NCBI GenBank assembly: GCA_964655175.1
Contig: CAZZLY010000001.1
Coordinates: 95,049 to 159,048, forward strand
Reading direction: 5' to 3'
Length of the DNA stretch: 64,000 nucleotides
Origin: an uncultured bacterium
GTDB lineage: Bacteria > Eisenbacteria > RBG-16-71-46
Shown here: one piece after another, positions 28,850-54,596 of the stretch
Layout of the letters: every line of letters begins with the position of its first letter
Position numbering within the stretch: the first letter of the stretch is position 1
Notes under the pieces: generated by a model
The model's input: only the letters and a program-made list of their open reading frames with translations
What the model was told of the DNA's origin: nothing
Databases searched by the model: none
Program-made: the position numbers and the translations under genes

Positions 28850-30547
28850 ATGGACGCGTTCGATCACGCCTCGCGACTCGAGGCGCGCGAGGTTCCCGGC
28901 TTCGCCACGCCCGAATGGGCCAAGCACGCGGTCTGGTACCAGATCATGGTGGACCGATTCCGCCGCGGTGCCGGCGCTCCGCCGCGCGCACACGTGCGCG
29001 ACTGGCGTCAGGCGTGGGACGAGCCGAGCCCGTGGGAGGCCGCCGACCCGCGCGATCCGTATCGCGGCTGGATCTGGGAGCGGCAGTTGGGCGGCGACCT
29101 CGCGGGGTTGCGTGAGGCGTTCCCGTACCTGCGCGAGCTCGGGGTGAACGCGCTCTACCTGCTGCCCGTGTTCCAGGCCGAGAGCCCGCACAAATACAAC
29201 GCCACGAACTACCTGCACATCGACGAGCGCTATGGCACCGGCGCGCCCTATGCGGCGAACGAGGCGGTCGAGGACCTGCTCGATCCATCGACGTGGCGAT
29301 TCGATGCGAACGACCGGTTGTTCCTCGAGGTGCTGCGCGACGCCAAGCGCGCCGGCTTCCGCGTGATCCTCGACGGGGTGTTCAACCACGTCGGGACCGC
29401 GCACCCGGCGTTCCGGGACGTGCGCGAGAAGGGCCCCGCCAGCCGCTACGCGGATTGGTTCGAGATCGAGTCGTGGGAGCCGTTCCGCTATCGCGGCTGG
29501 TTCGGGCACGGCTCGCTGCCGCAGTTCGCCAAGGACGAGGAGCACGGCCTCGCCAGTGCGAGCCTGCGTCAGCACGTGTTCGACGTGACCCGGCGCTGGA
29601 TGGATCCCGACGGGGATGGCGATCCGTCGGATGGCATCGACGGGTGGCGTCTGGACGTGCCCAACGAGGTCCCGATCGCGTTCTGGCAGGAGTGGCGTCG
29701 ACTCGTGAAGTCCATCAATCCGGAGGCCTACATCACCGGCGAGATCTGGACCCCGGCGCAGCCGTGGCTGCAGGGCGACGCCTTCGACGCGGTCATGAAC
29801 TACGAGTTCGCCACGCCGGTCGTGGCGTGGGTGTTCGACCGTCGTCTGCGCATCCGGGCGCGCGAGTTCGACCGGCGACTGCACGAGGTGCGCGACCGGC
29901 ATCCGAGCGAGTCCACTTACGTGATGCAGAATCTGCTCGACAGTCATGACACCGATCGCGCGGTGAGCATGGCGCGCAATCCCGACCGCGTGTACAACAA
30001 GCTCAATCGCGTGCAGGACACGCCCGAATACGTCGGGGCCAAGCCCGGACCCGAGGAGTACCGACGGCTGCGGCTCGCGGCGCTCATCCAGATGACCTAC
30101 GTGGGTGCGCCCATGATCTGGTACGGCACCGAGGTCGGCATGTGGGGCGCCAACGATCCGCACAATCGCCGTCCCATGCTGTGGCCGGAACTCGAGCCCT
30201 ACGGCGACGCGCCGGACAACGCGATCATGCCCGACCTGCTCGCGTGGTACCGCCGCGTCATCGCCCTGCGCAACGCGCATCCCGCGCTGCGCATCGGCAG
30301 CTTCCGCACGGTGTTCGTGGACGACGTGCTGGACGTGTGGGCCTTCGTCCGCGAGTCGCAGGGCGAGGAACTCCTGGTCGTCACCAGCATGGCCGAGCGC
30401 GCGCAGCGCGTGCCGCTGCCCATCGAACTCGGGGGCGGGTGGACGCCGGTGTTCGGCGAGGAGCCCGCCGGCATGGTCGATCGCTTCCCCGACGTCGTCG
30501 TGGGACCGATCACCGGCCGCGTCTGGCATCGCGGCGGCGAGCGATGA
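28850..30547 (+). CDS. Cytoplasmic GH13 alpha-amylase family enzyme (neopullulanase/cyclomaltodextrinase-like)
   Basis: GH13 regions I-IV (…VILDGVFNHVGTAH…, …GWRLDVPNEV…, …ITGEIW…, …LLDSHDT…); no signal peptide; AGGAGG RBS at 28835-28840. Confidence 0.85.
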   Translation: MDAFDHASRLEAREVPGFATPEWAKHAVWYQIMVDRFRRGAGAPPRAHVRDWRQAWDEPSPWEAADPRDPYRGWIWERQLGGDLAGLREAFPYLRELGVNALYLLPVFQAESPHKYNATNYLHIDERYGTGAPYAANEAVEDLLDPSTWRFDANDRLFLEVLRDAKRAGFRVILDGVFNHVGTAHPAFRDVREKGPASRYADWFEIESWEPFRYRGWFGHGSLPQFAKDEEHGLASASLRQHVFDVTRRWMDPDGDGDPSDGIDGWRLDVPNEVPIAFWQEWRRLVKSINPEAYITGEIWTPAQPWLQGDAFDAVMNYEFATPVVAWVFDRRLRIRAREFDRRLHEVRDRHPSESTYVMQNLLDSHDTDRAVSMARNPDRVYNKLNRVQDTPEYVGAKPGPEEYRRLRLAALIQMTYVGAPMIWYGTEVGMWGANDPHNRRPMLWPELEPYGDAPDNAIMPDLLAWYRRVIALRNAHPALRIGSFRTVFVDDVLDVWAFVRESQGEELLVVTSMAERAQRVPLPIELGGGWTPVFGEEPAGMVDRFPDVVVGPITGRVWHRGGER

Positions 30548-31965
30548 GCCGTCCACCCGGGTTGTTCGATCGTCGTCGTGCGGGCGTGCTGCTCCACCTG
30601 TCGAGTCTGCCCGGCCCGCACGGGATCGGGGGGCTCGGGCCCGAGGCGCTGCGCTTCGTCGACTGGTGCGCGACGGCGGGGCTGTCGCTCTGGCAGATGC
30701 TGCCGATCGGACCCGTCGGGGGCGGCGAGAGTCCGTACTCGGCCACCAGCAGCTTCGCCGGCGAGCCGTTGTTCGTGAGCCTCGAATGGCTCGCCGACGA
30801 CGGCCTGCTGCCGCGGGCGCGCCTCGCGGCGCCGGTCGCGTTCGGCCGCGGCCCGGTGCGCTATGCGGCCGCGCGAGCCTTCAAGTGGGCCCGCTTCACC
30901 GAAGCGCACGAGCGGTTCGAGCGCAAGGGCGGCCCCTCGTCGCGGACCTACCGTGCGTTCACCCGCACGCACGCCTCGTGGCTGCCGGGTTGGTCGCGCT
31001 TCTCGGCCCAGCGTCACGGCGGCTCCGAGGCGCTGCAGGCGTTCGTGCAGTACGTGTTCGCCACGCAATGGGAGCGCCTGCGCGTGCACGCCGGGCTGCA
31101 GGGCGTGCATCTGGTCGGGGATCTGCCGATCTTCGTCACGCAGGATTCCGCCGACGTGCAGGACCGCCCCGAACTGTTCCGGCTGGGCAAGGGAGGGCGA
31201 CCGCGCGTGGTGACCGGGGTGCCGCCGGACTGCTTCTCGGCCGACGGCCAGCTCTGGGGGCATCCGCACTACGCCTGGGCCGCGCATCGGCGCGAGCGGT
31301 TCCACTGGTGGATCGAACGCGTGCGTTTGGCGCTCGAGCGCTTCGATGCGTTGCGCATCGATCATTTCGTGGGGTTCGTCCACGCCTACGAGATCCCCGG
31401 CGATGCGACCTCGGCGCGGATCGGTCGTTGGCGGCCCACGCCGGGTCGTGAACTGCTCACCGCGGTACGTCGTGCGCTCGGGCCGCTGCCGCTCATCGCC
31501 GAGGACCTGGGCAACGTGACGCGCGAGGTGGTGCGTCTGCGCGAGGATTTCGGGTTGCCCGGCATGAAGCTGCTGCACAACGCGTTCTACGACCCCGACC
31601 ATCCCGACCTGCCGCATCACCATCCGCTCGATGCCGTGGTCTATCCGGGCACGCACGACAACGACACCTCGCGCGGTTGGGTGAGGGGGCTGTCGCGCGA
31701 GGTGCGGGAGCGGTTCGTACGTGTGGCGGGTGGGGACGTGCGCCGTCCCGAGGAGGCCCTCGTGCGCATGGCCTGGGGCAGTACCGCCCGCACCGCGATC
31801 GCCTCGATGCAGGACCTGCTCGGGCTGGGCCCGGAAGCCCGGCTCAACGTGCCCGGGGTGGCCGAGGGCAACTGGGTCTGGCGCATGGCTCCGGGGGCGC
31901 CCACAGGGCCTCTGGCGGCCCGTCTGCGGGCTCTGACGGCCGATACCGGCCGGCTGCCCGGCTGA
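30544..31965 (+). CDS. malQ: 4-alpha-glucanotransferase (amylomaltase, GH77)
   Basis: MSRPPGLFDRRRAGVLLHLSSLPGPHGIGGLGPEALRFVDW…SPYSATSSFAGEPLFVSLE… GH77 N-terminal signature; ATGA overlap with upstream GH13. Confidence 0.85.
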   Translation: MSRPPGLFDRRRAGVLLHLSSLPGPHGIGGLGPEALRFVDWCATAGLSLWQMLPIGPVGGGESPYSATSSFAGEPLFVSLEWLADDGLLPRARLAAPVAFGRGPVRYAAARAFKWARFTEAHERFERKGGPSSRTYRAFTRTHASWLPGWSRFSAQRHGGSEALQAFVQYVFATQWERLRVHAGLQGVHLVGDLPIFVTQDSADVQDRPELFRLGKGGRPRVVTGVPPDCFSADGQLWGHPHYAWAAHRRERFHWWIERVRLALERFDALRIDHFVGFVHAYEIPGDATSARIGRWRPTPGRELLTAVRRALGPLPLIAEDLGNVTREVVRLREDFGLPGMKLLHNAFYDPDHPDLPHHHPLDAVVYPGTHDNDTSRGWVRGLSREVRERFVRVAGGDVRRPEEALVRMAWGSTARTAIASMQDLLGLGPEARLNVPGVAEGNWVWRMAPGAPTGPLAARLRALTADTGRLPG

Positions 31966-32025: not shown

Positions 32026-32062
32026 GGACGGCCCCCGTCGGGATCCCGACGGGGGCCGTTCC
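32026..32062. terminator. Bidirectional rho-independent-type hairpin between convergent malQ and GH13 genes
   Basis: GGACGGCCCCCGTCGGG-ATC-CCGACGGGGGCCGTTCC near-perfect 17-bp inverted repeat. Confidence 0.6.
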
Positions 32063-32076: not shown

Positions 32077-34614
32077 TCAGAGGCGAACGAGCCGGGCGGT
32101 ACGCAGGCCCTCGGGGGTGCGCAGCTGCACGAAGTAAAGGCCCGGGGCGCTCGTGTGACCGCGGCCGTCGCGGCCGTCCCACGCCAGCAGGTGGTCGCCG
32201 CTCTCGTACACGCCGTCCGCGACCACCGCGACCTCACGGCCGGACACGTCGTGCACCGACAGGCGGACCGCCGCGCGGGTCGGGAGCGTGAACGACAGCG
32301 CCGAGGCGCGGTTCGTCGGGTTGGGCCACGGCGCGGCCAGCGCGAGCGTGGACGCCCGCGGGGCCGGGGGCGCGACACCGACGAACGAGTTCGGAGCGAG
32401 CACGATGAACGCCATCTTCGGCACCTTGAGCGTGATCGACTGATTGAAGCCGTCGTACGCACCGCCGTTGGCGAGCAGCGTGCCGGCGTTGGACGGACCC
32501 GAACCGCCGTAGCGCGTGTCCTGGCTGTTCACCAGTTCGGTCCACGTGCCGCCCTGCGGCATACCGATCTGGTAGATGGGGTAGTCGGTGTTCGACCAGT
32601 TGGCCAGGATCACGATCGGGTTGCCGCTCCCGTCCGTGCGGCGCCAGCCGATGACGTTGCCGGCCTCGTTGACGTGGAACACGTGCGTCGCACTGTTCGC
32701 GAACAGCGGCGCGAGCGACGTGCGCAGCGAGATGAGGCGGCTGAAGAACGCGTACACGCCCGCGCCCACGGTGCCCGTCTTCTTGGACCAGTCGAGACGG
32801 CCGGTGTTGTCGGGGGCGGGGTTGAACGGGTTGGACTCGAGCCATTCGTCGCCCTGCAGCATGGCCGGCACGCCCATCGAGGTGAGCGTGGTGCCGAGCG
32901 CCAGCAGCGTGCGGCCGCGCGCCCAGACGTCGTCGTGCGGTGCGGTCGAGTCGATGGTCTTGCACAGGCGCTGGCCACCGGTGGACGGCCACGCCTCGTC
33001 GTGCAACTGCACGTAGTGGTACGCGCGCTGCTGCTGCACGTAGTACCCGGCACCCAGGAGCGCGGTGCGGACGTCGTTCATGCTCGGATCGCCGAAGGCG
33101 GCCGCGAACACGGCGTTCCGGATGTTGTCGCGGAACTGCATGCTGTACTGGCTGTCGAAGCCGGCGCCGCCCAGGCTCGTGGGCGTCGAGACGGCGGCTT
33201 CGGTGGGCAGGTTCTCGGCGATCGTGACCTTGTCCACGAAGCGCTGGTTCTTCTCGTTGTTGAACCGCTGCATGATGGACCAGCCCGACGAGACGTTGGG
33301 GCCGACCTTCATGAACGCGGTGCCGTCCATGCGGAAGCCGTCGAGGTGGTACTCGTTCATCCAGACGTGCGCGCTGTGCGCGATCTGCTCGGCGACGGCG
33401 GGGCGGCTGAAGTTGGGCTGCGAACCCCAGGGCGTCGAGGCGTCCGGCGTGCAGAACCACGACTGCGTACCGTCGTAGTTCCACAGGTAGTTGTCGGTCG
33501 GCGAGTAGTGGTTCCAGACGAGGTCGAGCAGCACCGCGATGCCGTTGCGGTGGAGCGTGTTCACCATGGCCTTGAACTCGTCCGGCGTGCCGTAGCTGCC
33601 CTCGGGCGCGAAGAACGTCACCGGGTTGTAGCCGGCCGAGATGTTGGACGGGTACTCGGTGATCGGACACAGCTGCACCGCGTTCACGCCGAGCGCCTTG
33701 AGGTGCGCCACGCGCGCCGTCACGTCGGCGAAGCGCGACGGGTTGGGCGTCGTGCCCGCCGGGTCGTTGAGGCCGGCGAACGTGCCCACGTGCATCTGGT
33801 AGATGACCATGCGGTCGAGCGACGGCGTCGTCCAGCTCGTGTCGGTCCACGTGTAGCGGAACGGGTTCTCGACGATCGAGTTGTAGCCCGCCGGGGCGTT
33901 GAATGCGCGCGCGATCGGGTCCGGCGCGTAGCCGCCGTCGGCGGTGCGCGTCGGGAAGTAGAACTTGTACTCCGAGCGGTCGGTGACGTTGAGCCCGCGC
34001 GCGGTGAACCACTCGCCGGTCTTGGTCATGGCGAGCGTGTTCCAGTTGTTGAACGCGCCGCGCACGTAAGCCGTCGCGACGTCGGGCGCCCAGACCTTGA
34101 ACACGGCGGCGCCGCCGTTGACGAGGGTGGCACCCGGCGGCGCGTGCTCGAACGTCGTGAAGTTGATGCCGAAGCCTGCGGCATCGGCGGGCACGGTGGC
34201 GGTGATGCCGTTCGTGCTCAGGTAGGCGTTGTTGGCGCCGTCCGTGTACTGGATCCAGTACCGCTCGGTGGTGGAGGCCGTGGCCGGGATCTGCGCGGCC
34301 CACAGGTCGTAGGGCCCACGCGTGCCGATGCGCGAGGCCGCGATCGTGGAGGAGGTCGCGCCGACGATCAGGCGCACCGAGGCGGACGTGAGGTCGTTGC
34401 GATACGACTGGAAGCGCACCTGGAACGATTCGCCGTTCACAGGACACAGGGGCCGACGATCCTGCCAGGGGTAGTGCGAGAGGCCGTTCCACTCGACGTT
34501 CCCATCCGCGGACGCGGCGAACGACGAACCGACCGACAGGCACAGCAGGAGGCCCGTGAGGACCGAGGTCATTCTCTGGTGCAGGCGCATGCATCCTCCA
34601 TGGAGTGGCTTCAA
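32077..34614 (-). CDS. Secreted GH13 enzyme with CBM48 module (branching/debranching-enzyme-like, GlgB-type catalytic core) and C-terminal FlgD-Ig/T9SS-type sorting domain
   Basis: Signal peptide; CBM48 (…VFKVWAPDVATAYVRGAFNNWN…YKFYF); GH13 core (…MHVGTF…, …AVLLDLVWNHYS…, …YHLDGFRMDGTAFM…); C-terminal …VRLSVHDVSGREVAVV…LAWDGRDGRG…GLYFVQL… CTD. Confidence 0.8.
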   Translation of the reverse strand: MKPLHGGCMRLHQRMTSVLTGLLLCLSVGSSFAASADGNVEWNGLSHYPWQDRRPLCPVNGESFQVRFQSYRNDLTSASVRLIVGATSSTIAASRIGTRGPYDLWAAQIPATASTTERYWIQYTDGANNAYLSTNGITATVPADAAGFGINFTTFEHAPPGATLVNGGAAVFKVWAPDVATAYVRGAFNNWNTLAMTKTGEWFTARGLNVTDRSEYKFYFPTRTADGGYAPDPIARAFNAPAGYNSIVENPFRYTWTDTSWTTPSLDRMVIYQMHVGTFAGLNDPAGTTPNPSRFADVTARVAHLKALGVNAVQLCPITEYPSNISAGYNPVTFFAPEGSYGTPDEFKAMVNTLHRNGIAVLLDLVWNHYSPTDNYLWNYDGTQSWFCTPDASTPWGSQPNFSRPAVAEQIAHSAHVWMNEYHLDGFRMDGTAFMKVGPNVSSGWSIMQRFNNEKNQRFVDKVTIAENLPTEAAVSTPTSLGGAGFDSQYSMQFRDNIRNAVFAAAFGDPSMNDVRTALLGAGYYVQQQRAYHYVQLHDEAWPSTGGQRLCKTIDSTAPHDDVWARGRTLLALGTTLTSMGVPAMLQGDEWLESNPFNPAPDNTGRLDWSKKTGTVGAGVYAFFSRLISLRTSLAPLFANSATHVFHVNEAGNVIGWRRTDGSGNPIVILANWSNTDYPIYQIGMPQGGTWTELVNSQDTRYGGSGPSNAGTLLANGGAYDGFNQSITLKVPKMAFIVLAPNSFVGVAPPAPRASTLALAAPWPNPTNRASALSFTLPTRAAVRLSVHDVSGREVAVVADGVYESGDHLLAWDGRDGRGHTSAPGLYFVQLRTPEGLRTARLVRL

Positions 34615-34746: not shown

Positions 34747-35937
34747 ATGCGCGCAAGGTACGGTTGGGCGATCGGTGCGGTGGTCTGCGGCGTCGTGGGC
34801 CTCTCGTCGGGCGCCGCCGCCGCGGTCCGGTTCGAGGTCCGCGTGCCGGCGAGCACGCCGCCCGACGCGGTGCTGCAGATCTGCGGGGACCGGACCGAGC
34901 TGGGGATGTGGAGCGGCCGCGGCGTGCGGCTGACGCGACTCGAGGACGGCCGGCACGTGGGCGAGGTCGAGCTGCCCGCGGGGACCCCGTTCCAGTTCAA
35001 GGTGACCCGGGGCGGCTGGGACACGGTCGAGAAATCGGCCACGGGCGAGGAGATCGCCAATCGTCAGGCCGTCGCCACCGGTGGGGCCGATACGATCGCG
35101 ATCGTGGTCGCCGGATGGCGCGACGGACTCGAGAAGCCGGTGGTGCGCCGCAGTACGATCACCGGGGACGTCCGCCGTCATGCCGCGTTCCCGTCCCGGT
35201 TCGTGTCCGCGCGCGACGTGCTCGTGTGGTTACCGCCGGGCTACGACGCCCAGCCGCGCCGCCGTTACCCCGTGGTGCTGTTCCACGACGGGCAGAACGT
35301 GTTCGACGGCGCGACGAGTTTCCTGCCGGGCTTGGAGTGGGGCGCCGACGAGACCGCCGACCATCTGATCCGCAGCGGTCGCATGGCCCCGTGCATCGTG
35401 GTGGCGGTCGCCAACTCGCCGCAGCGGCGCGACGACTACACGTTCGAGGTGGACGGCCGATACGGTGGCGGTCGGTCGGCCGAGTACGCGCGCTTCCTGA
35501 TCGAGGAACTGTTGCCGTTCCTGGATCGCACCTATCGCACGCGCACGCAGGCCGCCGATCGTACGGTGATCGGTTCGTCGCTCGGCGGGCTCGTCTCGCT
35601 CGACCTGGGATTGCAGCATCCCGAGGTGTTCGGCCGGGTGGGCGTGATCTCGCCGGCCGTGTGGTGGGCCGATCGCGCGATCGTCGCGCGCGTGACGGCC
35701 ACCGGGCATCGGCCGCTGCGCGTCTGGCTCGACGTCGGGACCGAGGAGAGCACGCCGACCGCCGATGGGCATCGCGAGTGGCTCGAGAGTGCGGAGGCGT
35801 TGCGGGCCGCGCTCGTGGGTGCGGGCTGGCGGGAGGGACGGGACCTGCATTACGAGGTCGTCGAGGGCGCCCGGCATCAGGAGCCCGCGTGGGCGGCACG
35901 GCTCGAGCGCGTCCTGGAGTGGCTGCAGGCTCGGTGA
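34747..35937 (+). CDS. CBM20-like starch-binding module fused to alpha/beta-hydrolase 'putative esterase' (PF00756-like) domain
   Basis: Signal peptide; N-terminal …VRFEVRVPA…LQICGDRTELGMWSGRGVRL…FQFKVTRGGWDTVEK…NRQ (CBM20 hallmarks LGxW, YKF-like, W-E…NR); esterase motifs …YPVVLFHDGQNVFD…, …GSSLGG…. Confidence 0.7.
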   Translation: MRARYGWAIGAVVCGVVGLSSGAAAAVRFEVRVPASTPPDAVLQICGDRTELGMWSGRGVRLTRLEDGRHVGEVELPAGTPFQFKVTRGGWDTVEKSATGEEIANRQAVATGGADTIAIVVAGWRDGLEKPVVRRSTITGDVRRHAAFPSRFVSARDVLVWLPPGYDAQPRRRYPVVLFHDGQNVFDGATSFLPGLEWGADETADHLIRSGRMAPCIVVAVANSPQRRDDYTFEVDGRYGGGRSAEYARFLIEELLPFLDRTYRTRTQAADRTVIGSSLGGLVSLDLGLQHPEVFGRVGVISPAVWWADRAIVARVTATGHRPLRVWLDVGTEESTPTADGHREWLESAEALRAALVGAGWREGRDLHYEVVEGARHQEPAWAARLERVLEWLQAR

Positions 35938-45314: not shown

Positions 45315-46243
45315 CGGTCACCTCCGGGAAGCGGTGCGCGCAGGGTGATGCGATAGGAGGCGCCCAGATCGTGGTCCGTGGTCGCGGTGGCGTCCACGTG
45401 ATAGCCCCGGTGGAAGACGCCGAAGCCGCCGTTGAAATCGAGTTCGTTGGGAGAGCCCTGCGTGTCCACGATGTTCGACAGGTTCGAGACGCTCGAACGG
45501 ATCGCGAACACGTTGAAGAACGTCACCTCGATCCCGGCGCTCAGCGAGGTGCGTCCACCCGCCAGCTGCGACCAGCCCAGCGAGATGGTGGATTCACGGT
45601 TCCACCGTACCGAGGCGGCGAGTTCCTGGCGTGCCGCGAGGCGCTGGCCGCCGGTGCCGGGGATGAACTCGTAGCGCGGCTCGAGCAGGTCGCGACCGAC
45701 CCACGCCAGATCCACGCGCCACGGCGTCTCATAGAGGAGCGAGGCGTCGAGCGAGGTGCGCGACTGCCGACCGTAGTCGATCGCGGTCGCGGGCGCCGAC
45801 GGGTCGGCGAACGGCGTGAAGCCGATCCGGCCCACCTTGCCCGCCAGACCCACCGACAACGTCCCGCCGTGCGGCATGAAGTCCGGGCTCATGCGGTGCG
45901 CGACGGCCAGCGTGAACAGGTCCTCGGCGTAGCTGTCCGACAGCCCCAGATGGTGCCAGCCGGCGCCGAGGCTCACCGGGCCCACCGGAGCGGCCACCGC
46001 GATGCCACCGACGTTGAGATCCGCCAGCCCATAGGGCTTGGCGTAGTCCACCGAGGCCTCGCCGCGCGTGAGGCGGGTGAGGGCGGCCGCGTTCCAGTAG
46101 TGTGCCGAGACGTCGGACACGCTCGCGATGGAACCGAATCCCATGGCGAGTCCGCGTGCCCCGACCGCGACCTCCTCGAAGTAGGCGTGGGCGGTGGCGG
46201 CCCACAGCAGCGTCAGCGCGAGTGCCCGCGACAGCGCCTTCAT
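45311..46243 (-). CDS. Small outer-membrane beta-barrel protein (310 aa), possibly PorP/SprF- or FadL-like; function unknown
   Basis: Signal peptide MKALSRALALTLLWAATAHA; alternating hydrophobic beta-strand pattern; overlaps both neighbours by 4 nt. Confidence 0.55.
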   Translation of the reverse strand: MKALSRALALTLLWAATAHAYFEEVAVGARGLAMGFGSIASVSDVSAHYWNAAALTRLTRGEASVDYAKPYGLADLNVGGIAVAAPVGPVSLGAGWHHLGLSDSYAEDLFTLAVAHRMSPDFMPHGGTLSVGLAGKVGRIGFTPFADPSAPATAIDYGRQSRTSLDASLLYETPWRVDLAWVGRDLLEPRYEFIPGTGGQRLAARQELAASVRWNRESTISLGWSQLAGGRTSLSAGIEVTFFNVFAIRSSVSNLSNIVDTQGSPNELDFNGGFGVFHRGYHVDATATTDHDLGASYRITLRAPLPGGDR

Positions 46244-47625
46244 CGCACCACCACCACGGAACGGAGCGCACGGCTCAGATTGGGCTCGATCACGGTGCGG
46301 ATCACGTAGATGCCGGGCGGTACGATGCGGCCGCGCTCGTCACGGCCGTCCCACGCATCGCGCAGGTCGGTCTCGGAGGCCGCATCCCAGAACGAATCCC
46401 CGGGCTGGCCGCGCACGACGTTGCGCGTCTGGCCCTGATACAGCGCACGCACGAACCTTCCGCGCAGGTCGTAGACGTTCGCGGTGAGGTTGTACTGCCG
46501 CACCTTGGCGATCGGATCGGTGGGATCCAGCTTCTTGTCGAGTTCGACCCGGAACGACACCTTGTCACCGGCGTCGGGTGAGAACGCGGGGCGATCGAGG
46601 TGCACTTGGTCCGCCGCGAAGCGCAGCGCCACGACGGGCGGCTGGAACCGGAACGTGATGCGATCCTTGGGCGAGACGTTCCAGTCGGCCACGCCATCGG
46701 GGCCGGGCGCACCGTTGTTCAGCCCCGTGTCGTTGTTGCGGTCCAGATCGAGGATCGCCCAGTTGTCCAGGAACACGAGGTCGCCCGAGTTGTCCGTGTG
46801 CCCGCGCAGGTTGTCCGGGGCCGAATCGGGCCCACCGGTGCCGTCGCCGCCGGCGGTCACGACCGCGCACACCTTGATCTTGGTCCCCGGCGGGAACAGG
46901 CGGAAGGTGTCCGCGACGCCGGCCACGGTGAGGAACGTGTCGCGCGTGCCCACGCCGGCCGAGCCCAGGAACAGCGAGCGCCAGGGGATGCGCAACTCCA
47001 TGGCGCGCTCGGGATTCCCCTGCAGGAAGGTGGCGGCGGCGTTGAACGTGGCGCCGACGCGCTGATCGTCCACCTGGTTGCCCGCGATCTGGACGATGAG
47101 GCGCGGCGAGGTGTTGCCATCCCACGTGGCCGCGAACAGGTCGGGGGCGAAGCCCTTGCCCTGCGCGGTGCCGGTGGTGTCGAAGTCGAAGTTGCGCTTC
47201 CACGAGTTGAGCTGCGTCATGGACGTCAGACCACGATTGGGCACGGTGTCGAACAGCAGCACCATGTTGTTGTCCCAGATGCGGCCCTCGCCGGCGACGT
47301 ACAGGAACTGCGCGTCCCAGGTGATGCGGATCTGGTTGACGTCCTCGTTCACGCCCCAGCGCGAATCATCGGGCGCTTCCTCTGGGGCGTTGGCGGCGTT
47401 GTTGAAGCCGAACATGGCCTCGTCGGTCTGATAGTCCGTCGTGAAGCCGTCCACGCGGATGCGCGCGGACAGATCGCGCGCGGTCACGGCGTGACCGATG
47501 CCGGGCAGCGCGAGGACGAGCGGCAGTGCGAGACAGAGGGAGCGCAGACGCACGGGAGCCCACCGGGATTGGGGAGGGAACGTGACGAACAAAGTCCAGG
47601 ACGGTGCGCATACTCGCCGTGTCAC
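46240..47625 (-). CDS. Secreted protein with CBM9/DOMON-like N-terminal carbohydrate-binding-type domain and C-terminal FlgD-Ig/T9SS-type sorting domain; start codon uncertain (signal peptide begins ~24 codons into listed ORF)
   Basis: …RLRSLCLALPLVLALPGIGHA signal; N-domain …IRVDGFTTDYQTDEAMF…QFLYVAGEG… paralogous to 48086 and 50677 proteins; C-terminal …NVYDLRGRFVRALYQG…DAWDGRDERGRIVPPGIYVIRT… CTD. Confidence 0.65.
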   Translation of the reverse strand: MTRRVCAPSWTLFVTFPPQSRWAPVRLRSLCLALPLVLALPGIGHAVTARDLSARIRVDGFTTDYQTDEAMFGFNNAANAPEEAPDDSRWGVNEDVNQIRITWDAQFLYVAGEGRIWDNNMVLLFDTVPNRGLTSMTQLNSWKRNFDFDTTGTAQGKGFAPDLFAATWDGNTSPRLIVQIAGNQVDDQRVGATFNAAATFLQGNPERAMELRIPWRSLFLGSAGVGTRDTFLTVAGVADTFRLFPPGTKIKVCAVVTAGGDGTGGPDSAPDNLRGHTDNSGDLVFLDNWAILDLDRNNDTGLNNGAPGPDGVADWNVSPKDRITFRFQPPVVALRFAADQVHLDRPAFSPDAGDKVSFRVELDKKLDPTDPIAKVRQYNLTANVYDLRGRFVRALYQGQTRNVVRGQPGDSFWDAASETDLRDAWDGRDERGRIVPPGIYVIRTVIEPNLSRALRSVVVVR

Positions 47626-48085: not shown

Positions 48086-50551
48086 ATGAAGAGGCTACTC
48101 GCCCTCCTTCTCGTCGCGCTGGCGTGTTCGTTCGCCGCTCAGGCGCAGGCCGCGACGCCGCAGACCATCGTCGTGGACGGTGTCAACGACTTCCTGCCGG
48201 GCAACCTGCTCAAGGACGATCGAGCGGACACGCAGAGCAACTGCGGCGTCGGCATCTACCCGATGGATCTGGGTCGCGTGTACGTCACGAACGACGCCAA
48301 CTTCCTGTACGTCGGCATCGAGTTCTCGAAGACGTGCTACTGCGACATGAACCTCGGTATGGCGATCGACGTCGGCACCGCGACCGGCGGCACCACGGAT
48401 GCCTTCGGTCGCAAGATCGGTTGGGCCAACGTGCCGTTCAAGCCGGATTGGTACCTCTACGACGTGACGCCGACGAACTGCAACTCGTTCAACTACGAGG
48501 CGATCTACCGCGACACGCTCGGCACGTGGCAGAACCGCTCGAGCCTGTTCAACCCCTCGTACAGCACCGGTGCCAACGGTCTGGGCATCGTGGACTCGCT
48601 CAACTTCAAGGAGTTCAAGCTCCCGCTCGCCACGCTCGGGGCGCCCGCGGGCACGGCGATGCACCTGGAGTTCTGGGTCACGCAGGACAGCCCCACGAAG
48701 GGCCCGCTCGACGCGCTGAGCAGCGACAACGTCCAGATGTCGCGTGCGACGACGACCACTTACGACACGACCGCTGTGGTGCAGATGACGAGCATGATCA
48801 CCTACACCGTGCTCAACGCCACCGACAACGCGCCGCCGACGCTGCTCTCGGCGGAGGCGGTGGGCTTCGCGGTGCAGGCCAACAAGCAGTTCGGCCTGCT
48901 CACCACCAAGGTGGACGTCAAGTTCAGCGAGCCCGTCGATCTGACGAGCGCCCAGACCGCGGCCAACTACGCGTACTCCGGTCCGGCGCCCGCGCGCACG
49001 ATCACGAGCGCGGTGCGTGATGCCGCCGCGCCGGACATCGTGCATCTCACGCTGAGCACGCCGATCACCGCCAACGCCGCCGCGTTCGGGATCACGGCGT
49101 CGAACGTGAAGGACGTCGCCAACAACACGATCGTGGCGAACGGCGTGACCAACAAGGCGCAGTTCTTCCTGCAGAACCTGCAGTTCAACGGCAACTTCGC
49201 GCTGGGCCTGTGCAGCGGTGCGTTCACGGCCGCCGACACGTTCGCGGTCGAGGGTAGCCTCGCGCCGCTCACGTTCGGCCTCTGCGACAACGGCCTCATG
49301 TACGACGCCAACGCGGACTCGGTCTACACGCTGTCGGTGCCGTTCTCGCTGTCGCTCAACCGGGCGACGGGCAAGGGCGAGGCCGATCTCGAGTGGAAGT
49401 TCAGCAACAAGTGCACCACCTACGAGTCGCTCGCCGGTAACCGCTTCTTCCACCTCACCAGCGACAGCGGCTCGACCGCCCGCATCACGGCCGCCTGGAA
49501 CAACGACGACCCCGCGAACTACACCTCGCGTGCGGTGGACGTGATCTTCAAGGTCAACGCGGCGCTGCGGAACCCCGGTCCCGCCGACGTCATCACGCTG
49601 CTGGGGGATCGCGGTCCGCTGTCGTTCAACCAGCCCGGCGTGGCGATGCTCGACAACGGCGTCGCGCCGGATGCGGTCGCGGGCGACAAGATCTACACGG
49701 CCCGCGTCACGTTCCCCAAGTGCTCGTTCCGCACCGTGGGCTGGAAGGTCGATTTCAACGGTTCGTTCGAGTGCGCCGGCCAGGGCAACCGCACCGTGTA
49801 TCTGAACGACGCGCTCTACAGCACGACGACGCCGATCGTGCTGCCCGCGCGCGGCATCGATCGCTGCGAGGTCACGGACAAGGCGCTCACCGTGGTGTTC
49901 TCGGTGCGGGCCGACCAGTTCTACCCGCCGTCGGGCCCCACGGACACGCTGTCCATCCGGGGTGACGTGGCGCCGCTCGACTTCGGGACGGACGCGGTGA
50001 TCATGAAGGACGACGGTGCGGGTTACGACGCCCGCGCCAACGACGGCGTGTTCACCAAGGCCGTGACGTTCCCCGACTCGTCGCGCTTCAACGTCTCGTT
50101 CAAGTACTTCACGCTCGGTAACTTCGAGTGCGCGGGCTTCGGCAACCGCACGCTGACGCTCAACGACGTCACGATGGCGACGGCCACGCCGCTCGTTCGT
50201 CTGCAGGACGTGTTCGACTACTGTTCGGACCTCGCGGGCGTGGGCCCGGGCGTGCGCCCCGGCGATGCCGCGTCGTTCGCGGTGCTCCGTCCGGTGATGC
50301 CGAACCCGATCCGCCGCTCGGCGCGGTTCTCGTTCGAGCTCCACCGTCAGGGACGCGTCGCGCTCGACGTCTACGACGTCACCGGTCGTCGCGTGGCGCG
50401 CGTCGCCGAGATGGAACTGGCGCCGGGCGTGCACACCGTGGCGTGGGACGGCCGTGATTCCCGTGGCGTCCGCCTCGGAGCCGGCCTGTACGTCTACCAG
50501 CTGTCCATGGGCGGGGAGCGCGTCTCGAGCCGCCTGATCGTCACCCAGTGA
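48086..50551 (+). CDS. Secreted protein with CBM9/DOMON-like N-domain, three CBM20-like starch-binding repeats and C-terminal FlgD-Ig/T9SS-type sorting domain
   Basis: Signal peptide MKRLLALLLVALACSFAAQAQA; three repeats containing …G(D/S)..PL.FG…DG…D…YT…V.F…W/FKx.F…E(C/S)…GNR… (CBM20-like); C-terminal …VALDVYDVTGRRVARV…VAWDGRDSRG…GLYVYQL…. Confidence 0.75.
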   Translation: MKRLLALLLVALACSFAAQAQAATPQTIVVDGVNDFLPGNLLKDDRADTQSNCGVGIYPMDLGRVYVTNDANFLYVGIEFSKTCYCDMNLGMAIDVGTATGGTTDAFGRKIGWANVPFKPDWYLYDVTPTNCNSFNYEAIYRDTLGTWQNRSSLFNPSYSTGANGLGIVDSLNFKEFKLPLATLGAPAGTAMHLEFWVTQDSPTKGPLDALSSDNVQMSRATTTTYDTTAVVQMTSMITYTVLNATDNAPPTLLSAEAVGFAVQANKQFGLLTTKVDVKFSEPVDLTSAQTAANYAYSGPAPARTITSAVRDAAAPDIVHLTLSTPITANAAAFGITASNVKDVANNTIVANGVTNKAQFFLQNLQFNGNFALGLCSGAFTAADTFAVEGSLAPLTFGLCDNGLMYDANADSVYTLSVPFSLSLNRATGKGEADLEWKFSNKCTTYESLAGNRFFHLTSDSGSTARITAAWNNDDPANYTSRAVDVIFKVNAALRNPGPADVITLLGDRGPLSFNQPGVAMLDNGVAPDAVAGDKIYTARVTFPKCSFRTVGWKVDFNGSFECAGQGNRTVYLNDALYSTTTPIVLPARGIDRCEVTDKALTVVFSVRADQFYPPSGPTDTLSIRGDVAPLDFGTDAVIMKDDGAGYDARANDGVFTKAVTFPDSSRFNVSFKYFTLGNFECAGFGNRTLTLNDVTMATATPLVRLQDVFDYCSDLAGVGPGVRPGDAASFAVLRPVMPNPIRRSARFSFELHRQGRVALDVYDVTGRRVARVAEMELAPGVHTVAWDGRDSRGVRLGAGLYVYQLSMGGERVSSRLIVTQ

Positions 50552-50676: not shown

Positions 50677-51570
50677 ATGCGCAATGCGACCACGATCCTC
50701 GCGACCGGCCTGTTGCTGGCCTTCGCGGGCTCGGCGCTCGCGGCGACCGTCGACGGCACGCTCGACGGGGCCTACGGTGCCGCGCTGTCCACGCAGACCA
50801 CGCAGACCCAGTTCGGGGATGCCAACATCAGCCTGACCGACTACGCGAACGGCTCGGAGCTCGATGCCGCCTACGGTTACATCAGCGGCGGCGTGCTCTA
50901 CCTGTTCCTCGCGGGCAACCTCGAGTCGAACTTCAACAAGCTCGAGCTGTTCCTCGACACCAAGACGGGTGGGCAGAACCAGCTGCGCAGCGACAATCCG
51001 AACGTCGACTTCAACGGTCTCAACCGTCTCGCCGGCCTCAAGTTCGATGCCGCGTTCAGCCCGGATTACTACATCGGCTGGAGCGGTGGCTACGACGGCA
51101 GCGGCTACCGTCTGTTCGCCAACTGGGCCGAGCTCCTGACGGCCGGTGGCGGCGCGGGCAACTACCTCGGCAGCAACACCGCCGCGACCTCGGGCCCGCT
51201 GTCGGGCGGCACGAACCCGGACGGCATCGAGATCACGATCAACAACAGCAACGCCGGTGGCGTGGGCGGTGGCTGCTCGGCCGCCAGCGGCGCGGGCGTG
51301 AGCACGGGCGCGGAGTACGCGATCCCGCTGTCGGCGATCGGCAGCCCGTCGAGCGGCTGCATCAAGGTGCTCGCCGCCGTCAACGGCAGCGGTCACGACT
51401 ACTTCTCGAACCAGTTCGCGGCGCCGCTGCCGGCGGGCACCTGCAATCTGGGCGAGCCGTCGGTCGTGGACCTGTCGCAGATCGCGGGGGACCAGTACTT
51501 CCAGATCTGTCTGCAGACGGTGTCGGCCAAGAAGAGCACCTGGGGCAACGTGAAGTCGCTCTATCGGTGA
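50677..51570 (+). CDS. Secreted protein paralogous to N-terminal domain of 46240 and 48086 proteins (CBM9/DOMON-like); start ATG at 50677
   Basis: Signal peptide MRNATTILATGLLLAFAGSALA; …TVDGTLDGAYGAAL…GVLYLFLAGNLE…; GGAGAA RBS upstream; listed ORF begins earlier (50548) in non-coding leader. Confidence 0.6.
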   Translation: MRNATTILATGLLLAFAGSALAATVDGTLDGAYGAALSTQTTQTQFGDANISLTDYANGSELDAAYGYISGGVLYLFLAGNLESNFNKLELFLDTKTGGQNQLRSDNPNVDFNGLNRLAGLKFDAAFSPDYYIGWSGGYDGSGYRLFANWAELLTAGGGAGNYLGSNTAATSGPLSGGTNPDGIEITINNSNAGGVGGGCSAASGAGVSTGAEYAIPLSAIGSPSSGCIKVLAAVNGSGHDYFSNQFAAPLPAGTCNLGEPSVVDLSQIAGDQYFQICLQTVSAKKSTWGNVKSLYR

Positions 51571-51592
51571 TCGACGTCGTTGGAACGTTAGA

Positions 51593-51621
51593 GCCCCCGG
51601 CGAGCGCGACTCGCCGGGGGC
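51593..51621. terminator. Bidirectional hairpin terminator between convergent genes
   Basis: GCCCCCGGCGAG-CGCGA-CTCGCCGGGGGC perfect 12-bp stem followed by TTCGTGTTG. Confidence 0.6.
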
Positions 51622-51646
51622 TTCGTGTTGCCGGGCGTCGTCCGGG

Positions 51647-52486
51647 TCAGCCCTTCACGGAGCCCAGGGACAGGCCGCTCACGATGGCCCGATTGAGCAC
51701 CACGAACAGCACCATCACCGGCACGCACACGATGAGCGAACCCGCCGCGTAGTTGGCCCATTCCGTCTGGAACTGGCCCGCCAGACTCTCGAGCCCGAGC
51801 GGCAGCGTGTACATGGGCTGCCGCGAGATGACGATGCGCGCGACCATGAACTCGCTCCAGGCGGCCATGAACGAGAACAGTGCGGTGATCGCGAGCGCGG
51901 GCGCCGCGAGCGGCAGCGTCACCTTGGTGAACGCCTGCCACGGGGTGCAGCCGTCCAGGAGCGCCGCCTGCTCGAGTTCGACGGGGATCGTCCGGTAGTA
52001 GCCGCGCATGGTCATGACGCAGAACGGCAGTGCGGTGGCGGTGTACGCCAGCGCCAGACCCGCGAACTGGTCCAACAGGTGCAGGGCGCGCAGCAGGACG
52101 TACAGCGGCAGCATGGTCATGGTGGCGGGGAACATCTGCGTGAGCAGGAACACGCTGATCATGGCGTTGCGGCCGCGGAACGAGAACCGGCTCAGCGCGT
52201 AAGCGGCCGTCGACGCGAGCGTGACCCCGAACAGCGTCACCGCGGCCGAGATCACGAACGAGTTGAACAGCCAGCGCAGGAACGGCTTCTCGAACAGCAT
52301 GACGCGATAGGCGTTGAGCGAGGCCCCGTTCGGGAGGAGCGCCAGCGAGGTCGAGTAGAGCTGGTCGTTGGGCCGCAGCGACACGGTCACGATCTGCAGG
52401 ATCGGGTACACGGTCGCGAACGTGAACAGGATCAGGAACGCGTGGACGAGCACGCGTCCGGGCGTCCAGCGCATGCGGTCGCTCAT
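51647..52486 (-). CDS. ABC sugar transporter permease (CUT1 family, MalG/UgpE-like)
   Basis: 6-TM permease with EAA-like loop (…QAALLDGCTPWQAFTKVTLPLAAPAL…); ATG at 52486 overlaps upstream permease stop (ATGA). Confidence 0.85.
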   Translation of the reverse strand: MSDRMRWTPGRVLVHAFLILFTFATVYPILQIVTVSLRPNDQLYSTSLALLPNGASLNAYRVMLFEKPFLRWLFNSFVISAAVTLFGVTLASTAAYALSRFSFRGRNAMISVFLLTQMFPATMTMLPLYVLLRALHLLDQFAGLALAYTATALPFCVMTMRGYYRTIPVELEQAALLDGCTPWQAFTKVTLPLAAPALAITALFSFMAAWSEFMVARIVISRQPMYTLPLGLESLAGQFQTEWANYAAGSLIVCVPVMVLFVVLNRAIVSGLSLGSVKG

Positions 52487-53370
52487 CGGGCCTCCGCGTC
52501 GTCGCCGGTGCGTCGCATGACGTACAGGACGAAGCCCAGCAGCAGCACGAACACGACCACGGACAGCGCGGCCGCGTAGGAATAGCGCGAGTAGGTGAAC
52601 GCCGCCTTGTAGATGTACGTCACCAGGATGTGCGTGTGGTCGGCCGGCATGCCGCCGTTCGAGACCAACCACACGACCAGCATGGAGTTGAACGTCCACA
52701 CCGTGCCCAGCAGGATCGCCGGCGTCATCGTGGGGGCGAGGCCCGGCAGCGTGATGCGCACCAGCTTGTCCCAGCCGCTCGCGCCGTCGAGTTCGGCCGC
52801 CTCGTACTGGTCGCGGGGGATGGCGGTGAGCCCGCCCAGGGCCACGACCATCATGAACGGGAAGCCCAGCCACAGGTTGGTGAGGATCGGCGCCACGAAC
52901 GCCCAGAACGGGTCCGAGAGCCATGGCACGGGCGGCAGGTGGAACCACTGCTGCAGGATCAGGTTCACCGCGCCGTACTCGTAGTTGAACATGCCGCGCC
53001 AGGTGAGTGCCGAGATGTACTGCGGCATGGCCCACGGCAGGATGAGCAGCGTGCGGAACCACGTGCGCCCCACGACGCGGCCGTTCAGCAGCAGCGCCAG
53101 CGCCACGCCCACGACCACGTGCCCGACCACGTTGACCACGGTCCAGACGAGCGACTTGCCCAACAGCTCGTAGAACACGGGCTCGCGCAGGATGGTCGCG
53201 AACTGCTGCAGACCCACGAACGTGTGGTCGCGGAACCGGTACAGGCTCATGTTCCGGAACGCGAGATGGAAGTTGTAGAGCAGGGGGAACAGCACGACGC
53301 CGAGCAGCACCAGTAGCGCGGGTGCCAGCAGCAACCACGGGAACCGCTTCGGCGCGCGCAGCAGACTCAC
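52483..53370 (-). CDS. ABC sugar transporter permease (CUT1 family, MalF/UgpA-like)
   Basis: …YEAAELDGASGWDKLVRITLPGLAPTM… EAA motif; GTG at 53370 overlaps SBP stop (GTGA); N-terminal 148 aa of listed ORF 52483..53817 are spurious. Confidence 0.85.
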   Translation of the reverse strand: MSLLRAPKRFPWLLLAPALLVLLGVVLFPLLYNFHLAFRNMSLYRFRDHTFVGLQQFATILREPVFYELLGKSLVWTVVNVVGHVVVGVALALLLNGRVVGRTWFRTLLILPWAMPQYISALTWRGMFNYEYGAVNLILQQWFHLPPVPWLSDPFWAFVAPILTNLWLGFPFMMVVALGGLTAIPRDQYEAAELDGASGWDKLVRITLPGLAPTMTPAILLGTVWTFNSMLVVWLVSNGGMPADHTHILVTYIYKAAFTYSRYSYAAALSVVVFVLLLGFVLYVMRRTGDDAEAR

Positions 53371-54596
53371 TGCTTCATCCCCGCGATCTGGGTGACGGCC
53401 GACGTCTGCATCTCCTTCGCGGCGGCAGCCGCGGTCGCCGAGCCGTTCATGACCTTCTGCAGACCCGGTCGCATGGTGTCCCAGATGACGCGCATCTCGG
53501 GGCGCACGGGCATGCGGCGGCCGAGTGCGTAGCCCTCCTGCGACGCCTTGAGCATCGGATCGTTCTGGATCGTCGCGTCGTTCCACGCGTCGCGGTGGCT
53601 CGGCAGGATGCCGAGCGTGGTGGCGTCCTTGAGCGTGGCTTCGGGGCCGGTCAGGTAGGTGACGAGTTCGATCACGGCCGGCAACGCGTCGTCCTTCACG
53701 TTGACGTTGATCGAGTAGCCCTTGCTCGCCGTCATGGGGTGCGCGCGCTCGCCGTTGGGCAGCGTCCAGATCGGGGCGATGCCCAGATCGATACCGGCCG
53801 CGCGATAGCCCGCCCACGACCAGGGCCCGTTGATGATCATCGCCGCCTTGCCCTCCTTGAAGAGCGTCTCGGCGATCTGGTAGTCGGACTCCTTGGGCAT
53901 GATGCCCTCGCGGTTCTTGAGCCCCGCGAGGTACTCGAGCGCCTGCGTCATGCCCGGCGTGTCCAGGGTCGGCGTGCCGTCGGCCGACATCACCCAGCCG
54001 CCGTAGCCCGCGAGGAACGGGGCGAGCCAGTAGGGCTCGGTCACGTTCATGGCGAAGCCGTAGCGCCCGCCGCCGGTGTTCGCCTTGGCGGCCTTGAGGA
54101 ACTCCTCATGTGTGGTGGGAGCGGACGGGACCAACGCCTTGTTGTAGCACAACATGAGGTGGTTCCCGACCTGATCCGGCGCGGCCCAGAGATGGCCGTT
54201 CAGGGTGTCGAGCGCCTGCGGCACGAAGCGCTCGAAGAAGCCCGTCGGCAGGGTCTCGTCGAGCGGCTTGAGCAGCTGCAGGAGCGACAGAGGCCCGACC
54301 TGGTCCGACGGTCCGAAGATCAGGTCGGGGCCCGAGCCGCCGGCCGCTGCGGTCTGGAACTGCTGGCGCAGGTTCTCGGTGTCGTAGGGCACCGCGGTCA
54401 CCTTGAGACCCGGATGGTCGGCCATGTAGCGCACGAGCGTCGAGTCGAGACGCGTGCGCTCGGCCGGGTCCATCTGCATCCACAGCACGATCTCCTGCGG
54501 TCCGGAGGACTTCTTCGGCGCCTTGCTGCACGAGGCGAGGGCGAGCACCGCCAGGGCGAGAACGAGGAGTCGCGGGGAGGGGACGAACGACCGCAT
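53367..54596 (-). CDS. ABC transporter periplasmic sugar-binding lipoprotein (maltose/maltodextrin-binding family)
   Basis: Lipobox …LALASCSKAPKK; family 1 solute-binding protein features. Confidence 0.85.
   Translation of the reverse strand: MRSFVPSPRLLVLALAVLALASCSKAPKKSSGPQEIVLWMQMDPAERTRLDSTLVRYMADHPGLKVTAVPYDTENLRQQFQTAAAGGSGPDLIFGPSDQVGPLSLLQLLKPLDETLPTGFFERFVPQALDTLNGHLWAAPDQVGNHLMLCYNKALVPSAPTTHEEFLKAAKANTGGGRYGFAMNVTEPYWLAPFLAGYGGWVMSADGTPTLDTPGMTQALEYLAGLKNREGIMPKESDYQIAETLFKEGKAAMIINGPWSWAGYRAAGIDLGIAPIWTLPNGERAHPMTASKGYSINVNVKDDALPAVIELVTYLTGPEATLKDATTLGILPSHRDAWNDATIQNDPMLKASQEGYALGRRMPVRPEMRVIWDTMRPGLQKVMNGSATAAAAAKEMQTSAVTQIAGMKQ

Follow-up and report, generated by a model that had tools for sequence, protein, structure and literature searches.

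We describe here a locus for the utilisation of alpha-glucans of the starch, glycogen or pullulan type in an uncultured bacterium, located at positions 28850-54596 of a 64-kb window, by which we mean the whole stretch of DNA that was analysed (64,000 nucleotides). It consists of 17 closely spaced genes (G1 to G17), and its identity as a chromosomal alpha-glucan utilisation locus seems to us close to certain. At its centre lies an outer-membrane core of five genes with a conserved order, G12-G11-G10-G9-G8. These encode a secreted protein with a T9SS-type C-terminal domain (CTD; T9SS stands for type IX secretion system), a barrel of the PorV/PorQ family, two large barrels without a plug, one of which is fused to a glycogen-binding domain (GBD), and a small lipoprotein with a further GBD. 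This core is, in our view, probably an apparatus for the capture and import of glucan, and we infer that its barrels functionally replace SusC and SusD. A preliminary description of the same DNA had already arrived at an alpha-glucan locus, and the limits it gave match the called genes exactly: position 28850 is the ATG of G1 and position 54596 the start of the minus-strand MalE gene, G17. For comparison it had pointed to Gemmatimonadota/FCB genomes; the names of the homologs indicate Candidatus Eisenbacteria and not Gemmatimonadota.

The gene content carries the assignment of function. Domains were assigned with Pfam and NCBIfam and scored against the curated cutoffs. The locus holds three members of glycoside hydrolase family 13 (GH13) and one of family 77 (GH77), carbohydrate-binding modules of family 20 (CBM20) and of the AMPK1_CBM type above their cutoffs, and an ATP-binding cassette (ABC) importer with MalE, MalF and MalG as top matches. 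The AMPK1_CBM family, here referred to as the GBD, is named after AMP-activated protein kinase (AMPK) and belongs to the CBM48 clan; its cutoff (PF16561, 26.8 bits) is exceeded by G5, G6, G8 and G9. Several assignments of the preliminary description held without change: a cytoplasmic GH13 with MalQ (G1 and G2, by Pfam and NCBIfam), a CBM20-esterase (G4, above the Pfam cutoffs) and a MalEFG-like importer (G15 to G17). The same is true of the absence of SusC/SusD (TonB-dependent) components. No TonB-dependent receptor (Plug, TonB_dep_Rec) was detected among the 17 genes or in any open reading frame (ORF) of the window longer than 600 aa, and a Pfam match to SusD/RagB was missing both here and from those related loci with Pfam content listed. 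Neither SusD nor the LamB family (PF02264) has a member in the locus or among the long ORFs of the window, and Pfam and NCBIfam reveal no further outer-membrane channel within the locus. Having no adjacent susC and susD genes, the locus falls outside the definition of a Sus-like polysaccharide utilisation locus, and membership in the TonB-dependent transporters or the maltoporins was not found.

The conservation of the core was examined in other genomes. When genomes representing each GTDB species once were scanned with a G10 profile, this yielded 79 loci from Eisenbacteria, Krumholzibacteriota, many Cloacimonadota, Neomarinimicrobiota and a few metagenome-assembled genomes (MAGs) labelled Gemmatimonadota, with G10 identity going down to 27%. 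Gene order was judged by searching the window proteins against the six-frame ORFs of these loci. The core was complete and in order in 58 of the 79 and interrupted solely by contig ends in 15 more; in five of the remaining six a member was missed by the single-sequence search, and one showed an apparent order anomaly. The comparative genomics that had been proposed for this locus thus found the order of the outer-membrane core conserved across at least four phyla of the Fibrobacteres-Chlorobi-Bacteroidetes (FCB) superphylum, which adds weight to the interpretation. The surroundings are also recurrent: in nearly every locus the core adjoins GBD/CBM48-type modules, and MalFG and a gene for GH13 are usually close by (46/79 loci contain a detected G5-like GH13 and 42/79 MalFG). 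In the loci of a Cloacimonadota genome (L055) and a Marinimicrobia genome (L061), the genes follow one another on a single strand as MalF-MalG-(MalK)-CTD proteins-G12-G11-G10-G9 (GBD-barrel)-G8-small CBM48 protein-GH13-GH57; MalQ and phosphorylase are found near the core, and the GH13 there carries a GBD. The terminal GH57 enzyme, which has X25 domains, ends in a dockerin in Marinimicrobia (L061, 17012-20425) and in a T9SS CTD in Cloacimonadota (L055, 17594-21232), and on the basis of these domains it is apparently attached to the surface by different means in the two phyla.

An exhaustive search of 1.84 billion representative proteins with a hidden Markov model returned only 152 clusters of the G10 family. 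Two of the most remote relatives were looked up. One of them (L083) keeps the full context, including GBD proteins and a solute-binding protein/permease gene. For the other (L082) the contig measures 5 kb, and only a G12-like CTD gene and a G11-sized gene are visible upstream. As far as sampled, the module is rare, confined by its sequence relatives to the FCB lineage and accompanied by alpha-glucan genes. Four of the MAGs labelled Gemmatimonadota (L036, L037, L042 and L060) have the same locus and a G10 that is 40-44% identical to the Eisenbacteria protein; these carriers are either misclassified MAGs or the locus truly occurs in that phylum.

The same data bear on two further explanations. 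Since many spurious ORFs arise at 70% G+C, one may ask whether these genes are chance neighbours and G10, G12 and G14 not real genes at all. GC3 periodicity nevertheless fits every gene call, hundreds of full-length orthologs exist for G10 and G12, and the structural models are confident; because the same order recurs across phyla, the arrangement is not due to chance, and we regard this explanation as refuted. For G9 and G10 the databases contain identical or near-identical entries and hundreds of full-length orthologs, and all named sources are Candidatus Eisenbacteria. The second explanation is that the outer-membrane module exports or anchors an alpha-glucan made by the cell, such as a capsule or a glycogen-like exopolysaccharide, in the manner of AlgE, PelB or BcsC. 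However, no glycosyltransferase, synthase or polymerase was found in the locus or in the related loci, and the constant partners of the module are hydrolases (GH13, GH57), MalQ, phosphorylase and the MalEFG importer. We consider export very unlikely.

Three consecutive outer-membrane barrels, one of them fused to a GBD, had been recognised previously, and they correspond to G9 and G10, modelled as barrels with AlphaFold, and to G11, identified by its PorV/PorQ orthologs. The AlphaFold2 model of G9, built on an alignment of 55 orthologs, reached a predicted local distance difference test (pLDDT) of 86.4 and a predicted template-modelling score (pTM) of 0.77. An immunoglobulin-like GBD occupies residues 35-117, the barrel strands start at residue 137, and the approximately 630 residues following the GBD, which have no family match, fold as a barrel. 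The GBD aligns to the carbohydrate-binding module structures of AMPK beta1/beta2 (E 4e-10), and the motifs GxFNxW and YKFxVDGxW are invariant across the 55 orthologs; from the AMPK beta module, we take the sugar-stacking Trp and Lys residues to lie in these motifs. Placed ahead of strand 1, the GBD should be periplasmic if the barrel has the normal topology. In G10 (model from an alignment of 52 orthologs, pLDDT 83.6), strand 1 comes directly after the signal peptide, and the strands are joined by long loops and two-residue turns in alternation, as is usual for a barrel with both termini in the periplasm. Like outer-membrane barrels in general, members of the G9 and G10 families typically end in Phe (72 of 75 and 74 of 76 orthologs, about 97%). 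Profile alignment of the two (hhalign, 79.5%) suggests that they are distant paralogs.

The solved folds closest to G9 and G10 are the 22-strand barrels of TonB-dependent transporters and the 24-strand ushers. G9 could in principle be a degenerate TonB-dependent transporter, energised by TonB/ExbBD or by a T9SS motor encoded elsewhere, for which its GBD or G8 would act as a plug in trans. Against this, neither Plug nor TonB_dep_Rec has a Pfam match in G9 or G10 at E<=0.01, neither protein has a TonB box, and the related loci with Pfam content listed contain no TonB/ExbBD genes. Since the Foldseek TM-score of G9 is at most 0.43, the likeness of fold reflects size, as among large barrels in general, and not family membership. 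A degenerate transporter is therefore quite improbable. The segment NSVVTVDA of G9 was considered as a TonB box and rejected, since it forms the final, conserved strand of the GBD and recurs in G6 and G8.

Next to these barrels, G11 appears from its profile matches to be a divergent member of the PorV/PorQ family. In the window copy, the matches to NF052325 (PorV2, 3e-11) and, over the N-terminal part only, to NF033709 (2e-7) stay below the cutoffs, and all 35 orthologs match the family (E<=0.01, best 1.2e-25), 18 of them as PorV and 16 as PorQ, with many also matching PorP. In the accepted model, the uncleaved CTDs of PorU and PorZ stay bound to their cognate PorV and PorQ barrels (PMC10202324), and further FCB phyla may possess a T9SS (PMC11285876). 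In G12 a CTD can be recognised at the family level only: the window protein has no Pfam match, and among 33 orthologs there are C-terminal matches to FlgD_ig in 14, CHU_C in 4 and Por_Secre_tail in 2. Compared with the PDB, the G12 profile recovered FlgD (1e-6) and the PorU CTD (6za2, 3e-3), and a profile search with G12 returned orthologs only, all named "hypothetical", and no Pfam domain.

Two other proteins of the locus carry a CTD of T9SS type A. In G3 it exceeds the cutoff of TIGR04183 (Por_Secre_tail, 27.6 bits versus 23) and is 41% identical to the CTD of G13. In the window G13 we found FlgD_ig and two choice-of-anchor X matches, and the CTD is recognised through the orthologs (FlgD_ig in 17/17 and Por_Secre_tail, PF18962, in 13/17; Big_5 is found in 14/17) and through the match of its profile to the PorU CTD structure (3e-6). 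Searches of the PDB with G10, G11, G12 and G13 gave nothing beyond these CTD matches to FlgD and PorU. The preliminary description had presented G12, G13 and G14 as three paralogous CBM20-repeat proteins, two of them with a T9SS CTD. The kinship stands at the profile level (hhalign, 99.5%, E 6e-23 for G12-G13 and 89%, E 2e-6 for G13-G14), by way of a common unannotated N-terminal domain, but BLASTP among the three finds no similarity apart from the CTD. The two CTDs stand as well, that of G12 at the family level. CBM20 was supported weakly, and in G13 alone: Pfam finds no PF00686 in G12, G13 or G14, nor in the 33 orthologs of G12 and 17 of G13. G13 does possess internal repeats (residues ~365-480, 483-600 and 603-714; 99.7%), one of which aligns with the CBM20 profile of the G4 family (hhalign, 79%). 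G14 is present in only 5 of the 79 loci.

The glucan-binding lipoproteins are encoded downstream of the barrels. Three lipoproteins built of GBDs had been proposed, and this applies to G6, with four such domains, and to G8, with one, but not to G7, which has no clear GBD. G8 was detected in 68 of the 79 loci. Its mature N-terminus, CS(T)LNFIK(K/R)RLPPP (window 41340-41408), is nearly constant from Eisenbacteria to Cloacimonadota and Marinimicrobia (orthologs in L053-L074), and whole-protein identity across the same phyla is only ~30%. This conserved segment could, as a candidate from sequence, dock to or plug a barrel. In L083, the barrel at the position of G9 (11666-13594, 643 aa) has no detectable GBD, and next come small proteins that contain one and two such domains (13902-15080); as the barrel without a GBD has separate GBD proteins beside it, the domain can be supplied in trans. 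In G6, the lipobox (...GC followed by AGGWRGG) is conserved among orthologs, and a 318-bp tandem repeat (39084-39972, 2.8 copies, 95% identity) encodes near-identical glycogen-binding modules. The GBD copy number of G6 appears to be evolving fast, since the lengths of its orthologs span 258 to 593 aa. G7 aligns to the GBD profile at 63% (hhalign), and its longer orthologs show CarboxypepD_reg together with faint matches to X25, AMPK1_CBM and CBM_1st_SusF.

G5, the GH13 enzyme encoded at the end of the same operon, is informative about the form in which glucan reaches the periplasm. In Pfam it matches, besides two copies of AMPK1_CBM, the families Alpha-amylase_N and Alpha-amylase (E 3e-62). 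Its Eisenbacteria orthologs mostly have signal peptides of the signal peptidase I (SPase-I) type (AxA, then TKVTF), and the site of cleavage lacks a lipobox Cys. At its C-terminus the window protein has amylase C-terminal domains, and Pfam finds no CTD. Because of these signals and the lack of a CTD, G5 is most simply placed in the periplasm, and the SPase-I signal together with the two GBDs therefore implies a substrate of polymer length in that compartment.

These observations can be combined into a mechanism. The enzyme G3 and the non-catalytic proteins G13 and G12 have CTDs, and the Sec pathway followed by a T9SS-type pathway would put them on or outside the cell. G12, from the family membership of G11 and the translational coupling of the two genes, would keep its CTD, by which a PorV/PorQ-type barrel of its own would retain it at the surface. 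G3 would nick the polymer, and the chains would cross the outer membrane through G9 and/or G10, which have the fold of large barrels and neither plug nor TonB box, without the participation of TonB. GBDs presumably located in the periplasm (one at the N-terminus of G9, one in G8, four in G6 and two in G5) would catch the incoming chains and bias their movement inward. From the enzyme families, G5 would then cut the chains to maltooligosaccharides, MalEFG would import these, and G1 together with the MalQ protein G2 would finish the degradation in the cytoplasm. One may speculate that G8 or the GBD of G9 gates the wide barrels, as LptE plugs LptD. In its strongest form, the proposal is that the five-gene core is a so far unrecognised kind of TonB-independent polysaccharide translocon, with paralogous plug-less barrels gated by GBDs in cis (G9) and in trans (G8), a surface receptor (G12) tethered to a PorV-like barrel, and whole chains that are imported with the aid of a GBD ratchet. 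We put this forward tentatively, as possible and on the doubtful side. Such a translocon would be the counterpart, in FCB bacteria other than Bacteroidota, of "selfish" SusCD uptake.

The main alternative role for the core is that of a platform for surface display or attachment (an "amylosome"), in which G11, G10 and G9 anchor G12, G13, G3 and G8, and the degradation products enter through an unlinked general porin. The PorV/PorQ family, to which G11 is assigned, comprises barrels that are known as surface anchors of CTD proteins, the locus encodes three CTD proteins, and the dockerin on the Marinimicrobia GH57 hints at a surface assembly. From general knowledge, the surface exposure of a lipoprotein inside a barrel also has precedents such as LptDE, and the pores are wide with no gating element found. 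However, anchoring does not need a barrel of 22-24 strands, PorV-type anchors having, again from general knowledge, 14; the polymer-length periplasmic substrate to which G5 points would not pass a general porin; and the core usually adjoins an ABC importer and a periplasmic GH13. We rate a pure platform as unlikely, though it deserves to be kept in mind.

Several observations weigh against a role of the core in capture and import as set out above. With 22-24 strands and no plug, such a barrel would leave an opening of dangerous width in the outer membrane, with no gating element identified, and maltodextrins could be carried by a general porin encoded elsewhere in the genome. The topology could also differ: the GBD of G9 could lie within the barrel lumen or outside the cell, and the lipoproteins G6 to G8 could be exposed at the surface like SusE/F/G instead of facing the periplasm. 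As to secretion, the window G13 scores just below the cutoff of TIGR04183 (22.9 bits versus 23), the window G11 below the NCBIfam cutoff of NF033709 (30.7 bits versus 90), and T9SS core genes (SprA/Sov, PorK/L/M/N, PorU/V) are absent from the 64-kb window, the only stretch covered. Finally, no regulator and no shared operator were found within the locus, and a MalK-type ATPase is missing from the window. Glucan phosphorylase is likewise absent from the 64 kb, though both genes occur inside related loci (L001, L061). Since no MalK is encoded in the 64 kb, MalEFG must use an ATPase encoded elsewhere.

The coordinates and features of all 17 genes are given in Table 1.

Table 1. Genes of the alpha-glucan utilisation locus, with positions in the 64-kb window.
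Gene	Positions	Strand	Product and features
G1	28850..30547	+	cytoplasmic GH13, cyclomaltodextrinase/maltodextrin glucosidase-like; Pfam Alpha-amylase E 9.5e-44
G2	30544..31965	+	GH77 4-alpha-glucanotransferase (MalQ); Glyco_hydro_77 E 1.4e-127
G3	32077..34590	-	secreted GH13, CBM48-type group (GlgB/TreZ-like), with T9SS type A CTD
G4	34747..35937	+	secreted CBM20 + PF00756 esterase; Esterase E 1e-35, CBM_20 E 2.9e-7 (above cutoff)
G5	36012..38672	-	periplasmic (predicted) GH13, neopullulanase/maltodextrin glucosidase-like; two N-terminal GBDs
G6	38744..40132	-	lipoprotein of four AMPK1_CBM domains, E 2.9e-59
G7	40129..40989	-	lipoprotein, Eisenbacteria only; lipobox LVGC; CarboxypepD_reg weak, E 9e-4
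G8	41004..41408	-	small lipoprotein, one AMPK1_CBM (also X25 match); lipobox VAGC; core gene
G9	41440..43749	-	signal peptide, GBD, then plug-less ~22-24-strand outer-membrane barrel; core gene
G10	43749..45314	-	24-strand outer-membrane barrel, no extra domain, no known family; core gene
G11	45311..46243	-	PorV/PorQ-family outer-membrane barrel; 4-bp overlaps with G12 and G10; core gene
G12	46240..47553	-	secreted; ~300-aa uncharacterised N-terminal domain and T9SS-type CTD; core gene
G13	48086..50551	+	secreted; G12-like N-terminal domain, Big_5, three internal repeats, T9SS CTD
G14	50677..51570	+	small secreted protein, weakly related to G13 N-terminal domain; no family match
G15	51647..52486	-	ABC permease, MalG-like; BPD_transp_1; top NCBIfam match MalG 1e-47, below equivalog cutoff
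G16	52483..53370	-	ABC permease, MalF-like; BPD_transp_1; top NCBIfam match MalF 5.6e-51, below cutoff
G17	53367..54596	-	lipoprotein solute-binding protein, MalE-like; SBP_bac_8 E 5e-40; top NCBIfam match MalE 1.7e-44

The raw ORF lists were noisy at ~70% G+C, and genes were called by GC3 (G+C at the third codon position) periodicity in frame plots, with starts set from the translations. The gene calls list five units of transcription direction, namely G1-G2 (+), G3 (-), G4 (+), G12 to G5 (-) and G13-G14 (+), and then MalE-F-G (-). The longest is an eight-gene minus-strand operon, from G12 as its first gene to G5 (47553 to 36012). Start and stop codons overlap by 4 bp or 1 bp within G12/G11/G10/G9, G7/G6, MalE/F/G and G1/G2 (4 bp in the latter), and a GC-rich hairpin with a 14-bp stem (32028-32059) lies between the convergent genes G2 and G3. 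When the three divergent promoter regions were compared for a common operator, no motif longer than a 10-mer was found. This single 10-mer, CGATGCGAAC, is common to two of them (at ~47905, between G12 and G13, and at ~34623, between G3 and G4), and may be an operator half-site or a chance occurrence.

Among the enzymes, G1 has no signal peptide; cyclomaltodextrinase and MalZ are its top NCBIfam matches, both below cutoff, and it is 33% identical to the catalytic part of G5. G2 scores 526 bits with NF011080 (cutoff 477). Two secreted GH13 enzymes with CBM48 or GBD modules, one bearing a CTD, had been described for the locus. This agrees with the CTD of G3 and with the two GBDs of G5, whereas the CBM_48 match of G3 is weak (E 0.003, below cutoff) next to its Pfam matches to Alpha-amylase, Alpha-amylase_C and FlgD_ig. 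The fusion of CBM20 with a PF00756 "putative esterase", as in G4, recurs beside the locus in other Eisenbacteria. A lipobox Cys is present in most orthologs of G17.

The locus is flanked by genes with housekeeping functions, encoding RecJ, RelA/SpoT, S2, EF-Ts, Dxr, RseP, BamA, a TamB-like protein, glutamine synthetase III, UvrD and an amidase. Immediately ahead of G1 (25644-28835, plus strand) lies a gene for a 1063-aa protein that combines Peptidase_MA_2 and PD40 beta-propeller repeats with an Omp85-type barrel at its C-terminus. It is directly 3' of BamA and of the gene for the 1473-aa TamB-like protein (19288-21528 and 21161-25582), and the three form an unusual cluster for outer-membrane biogenesis.

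Comparison with characterised systems places the locus between several of them. The Sus system of Bacteroides thetaiotaomicron (SusCDEFG with SusA/B) is likewise a single locus for surface capture, partial hydrolysis, passage of the outer membrane and periplasmic GH13 action; it also has several non-catalytic starch-binding lipoproteins, and both systems are from the FCB superphylum. Unlike Sus, the present locus has, in place of SusC/SusD, two plug-less 22-24-strand barrels, one fused to an AMPK-type GBD, and a PorV/PorQ-type barrel with a CTD partner; its surface proteins carry T9SS CTDs, and import into the cell is by a MalEFG ABC system. Closest in overall logic is the maltose regulon of Escherichia coli (LamB, MalS, MalEFGK, MalQ, MalZ, MalP), with its TonB-independent passage of the outer membrane (which we suppose for the present locus as well), periplasmic amylase, MalEFG, and cytoplasmic MalQ and GH13 glucosidase. 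LamB is an 18-strand trimeric sugar porin. Alpha-glucan oligomers that exceed the size admitted by general porins also have outer-membrane routes of their own, associated with an ABC importer or with amylases, in the cym system of Klebsiella oxytoca (the cyclodextrin channel CymA) and in Caulobacter (the maltodextrin transporter MalA). The barrel of CymA, however, has 14 strands and a plug peptide at its N-terminus, MalA is a classical TonB-dependent transporter, and by sequence G9 and G10 belong to neither family. The translational coupling of the CTD protein G12 to the PorV/PorQ-family protein G11 resembles T9SS pairs of the PorU-PorV, PorZ-PorQ and SprB-SprF type, but in the present locus the pair belongs to a catabolic operon, not to the machinery of general secretion or attachment, and the ~300-aa N-terminal domain of G12 has no known family. 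To LptD-LptE and the FimD/PapC ushers there is no sequence relationship, and G10 contains no plug domain; G8 as a plug is a hypothesis.

Many of the parts are thus familiar, namely GH13, GH77, CBM20, the AMPK-type GBD, MalEFG, the T9SS CTD and PorV/PorQ. What sets the locus apart is the fusion of a GBD to a barrel, the families of the 24-strand barrel G10 and of G12, and the constant arrangement of five genes, all without a characterised or named relative; G10 and G12 have no Pfam family, and their relatives are named only "hypothetical protein". We found no description of the module in the literature on starch use, T9SS, PorV or CBM48 in Eisenbacteria, Cloacimonadota and Marinimicrobia, in agreement with the earlier impression that the design had not been described. 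A paper on Cloacimonadota proposes a cellulosome-like starch system and does not mention the five-gene module (PMC8542988).

The uptake of glycans across the outer membrane is understood in terms of two designs. One relies on specific porins of small size (LamB and CymA are examples), and the other on TonB-powered systems of the SusCD type. Our findings suggest that the locus described here represents a third. Its carriers belong to at least four uncultured or little-studied FCB phyla from soils, sediments, digesters and the ocean. If long chains are indeed imported by the core, this would account for the ability of these phyla to compete for starch and glycogen although they lack SusCD, and it would give a function to the unannotated G10 and G12 families. 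It would also mean that a PorV-type anchor of the T9SS has been reused in a machine for nutrient uptake.

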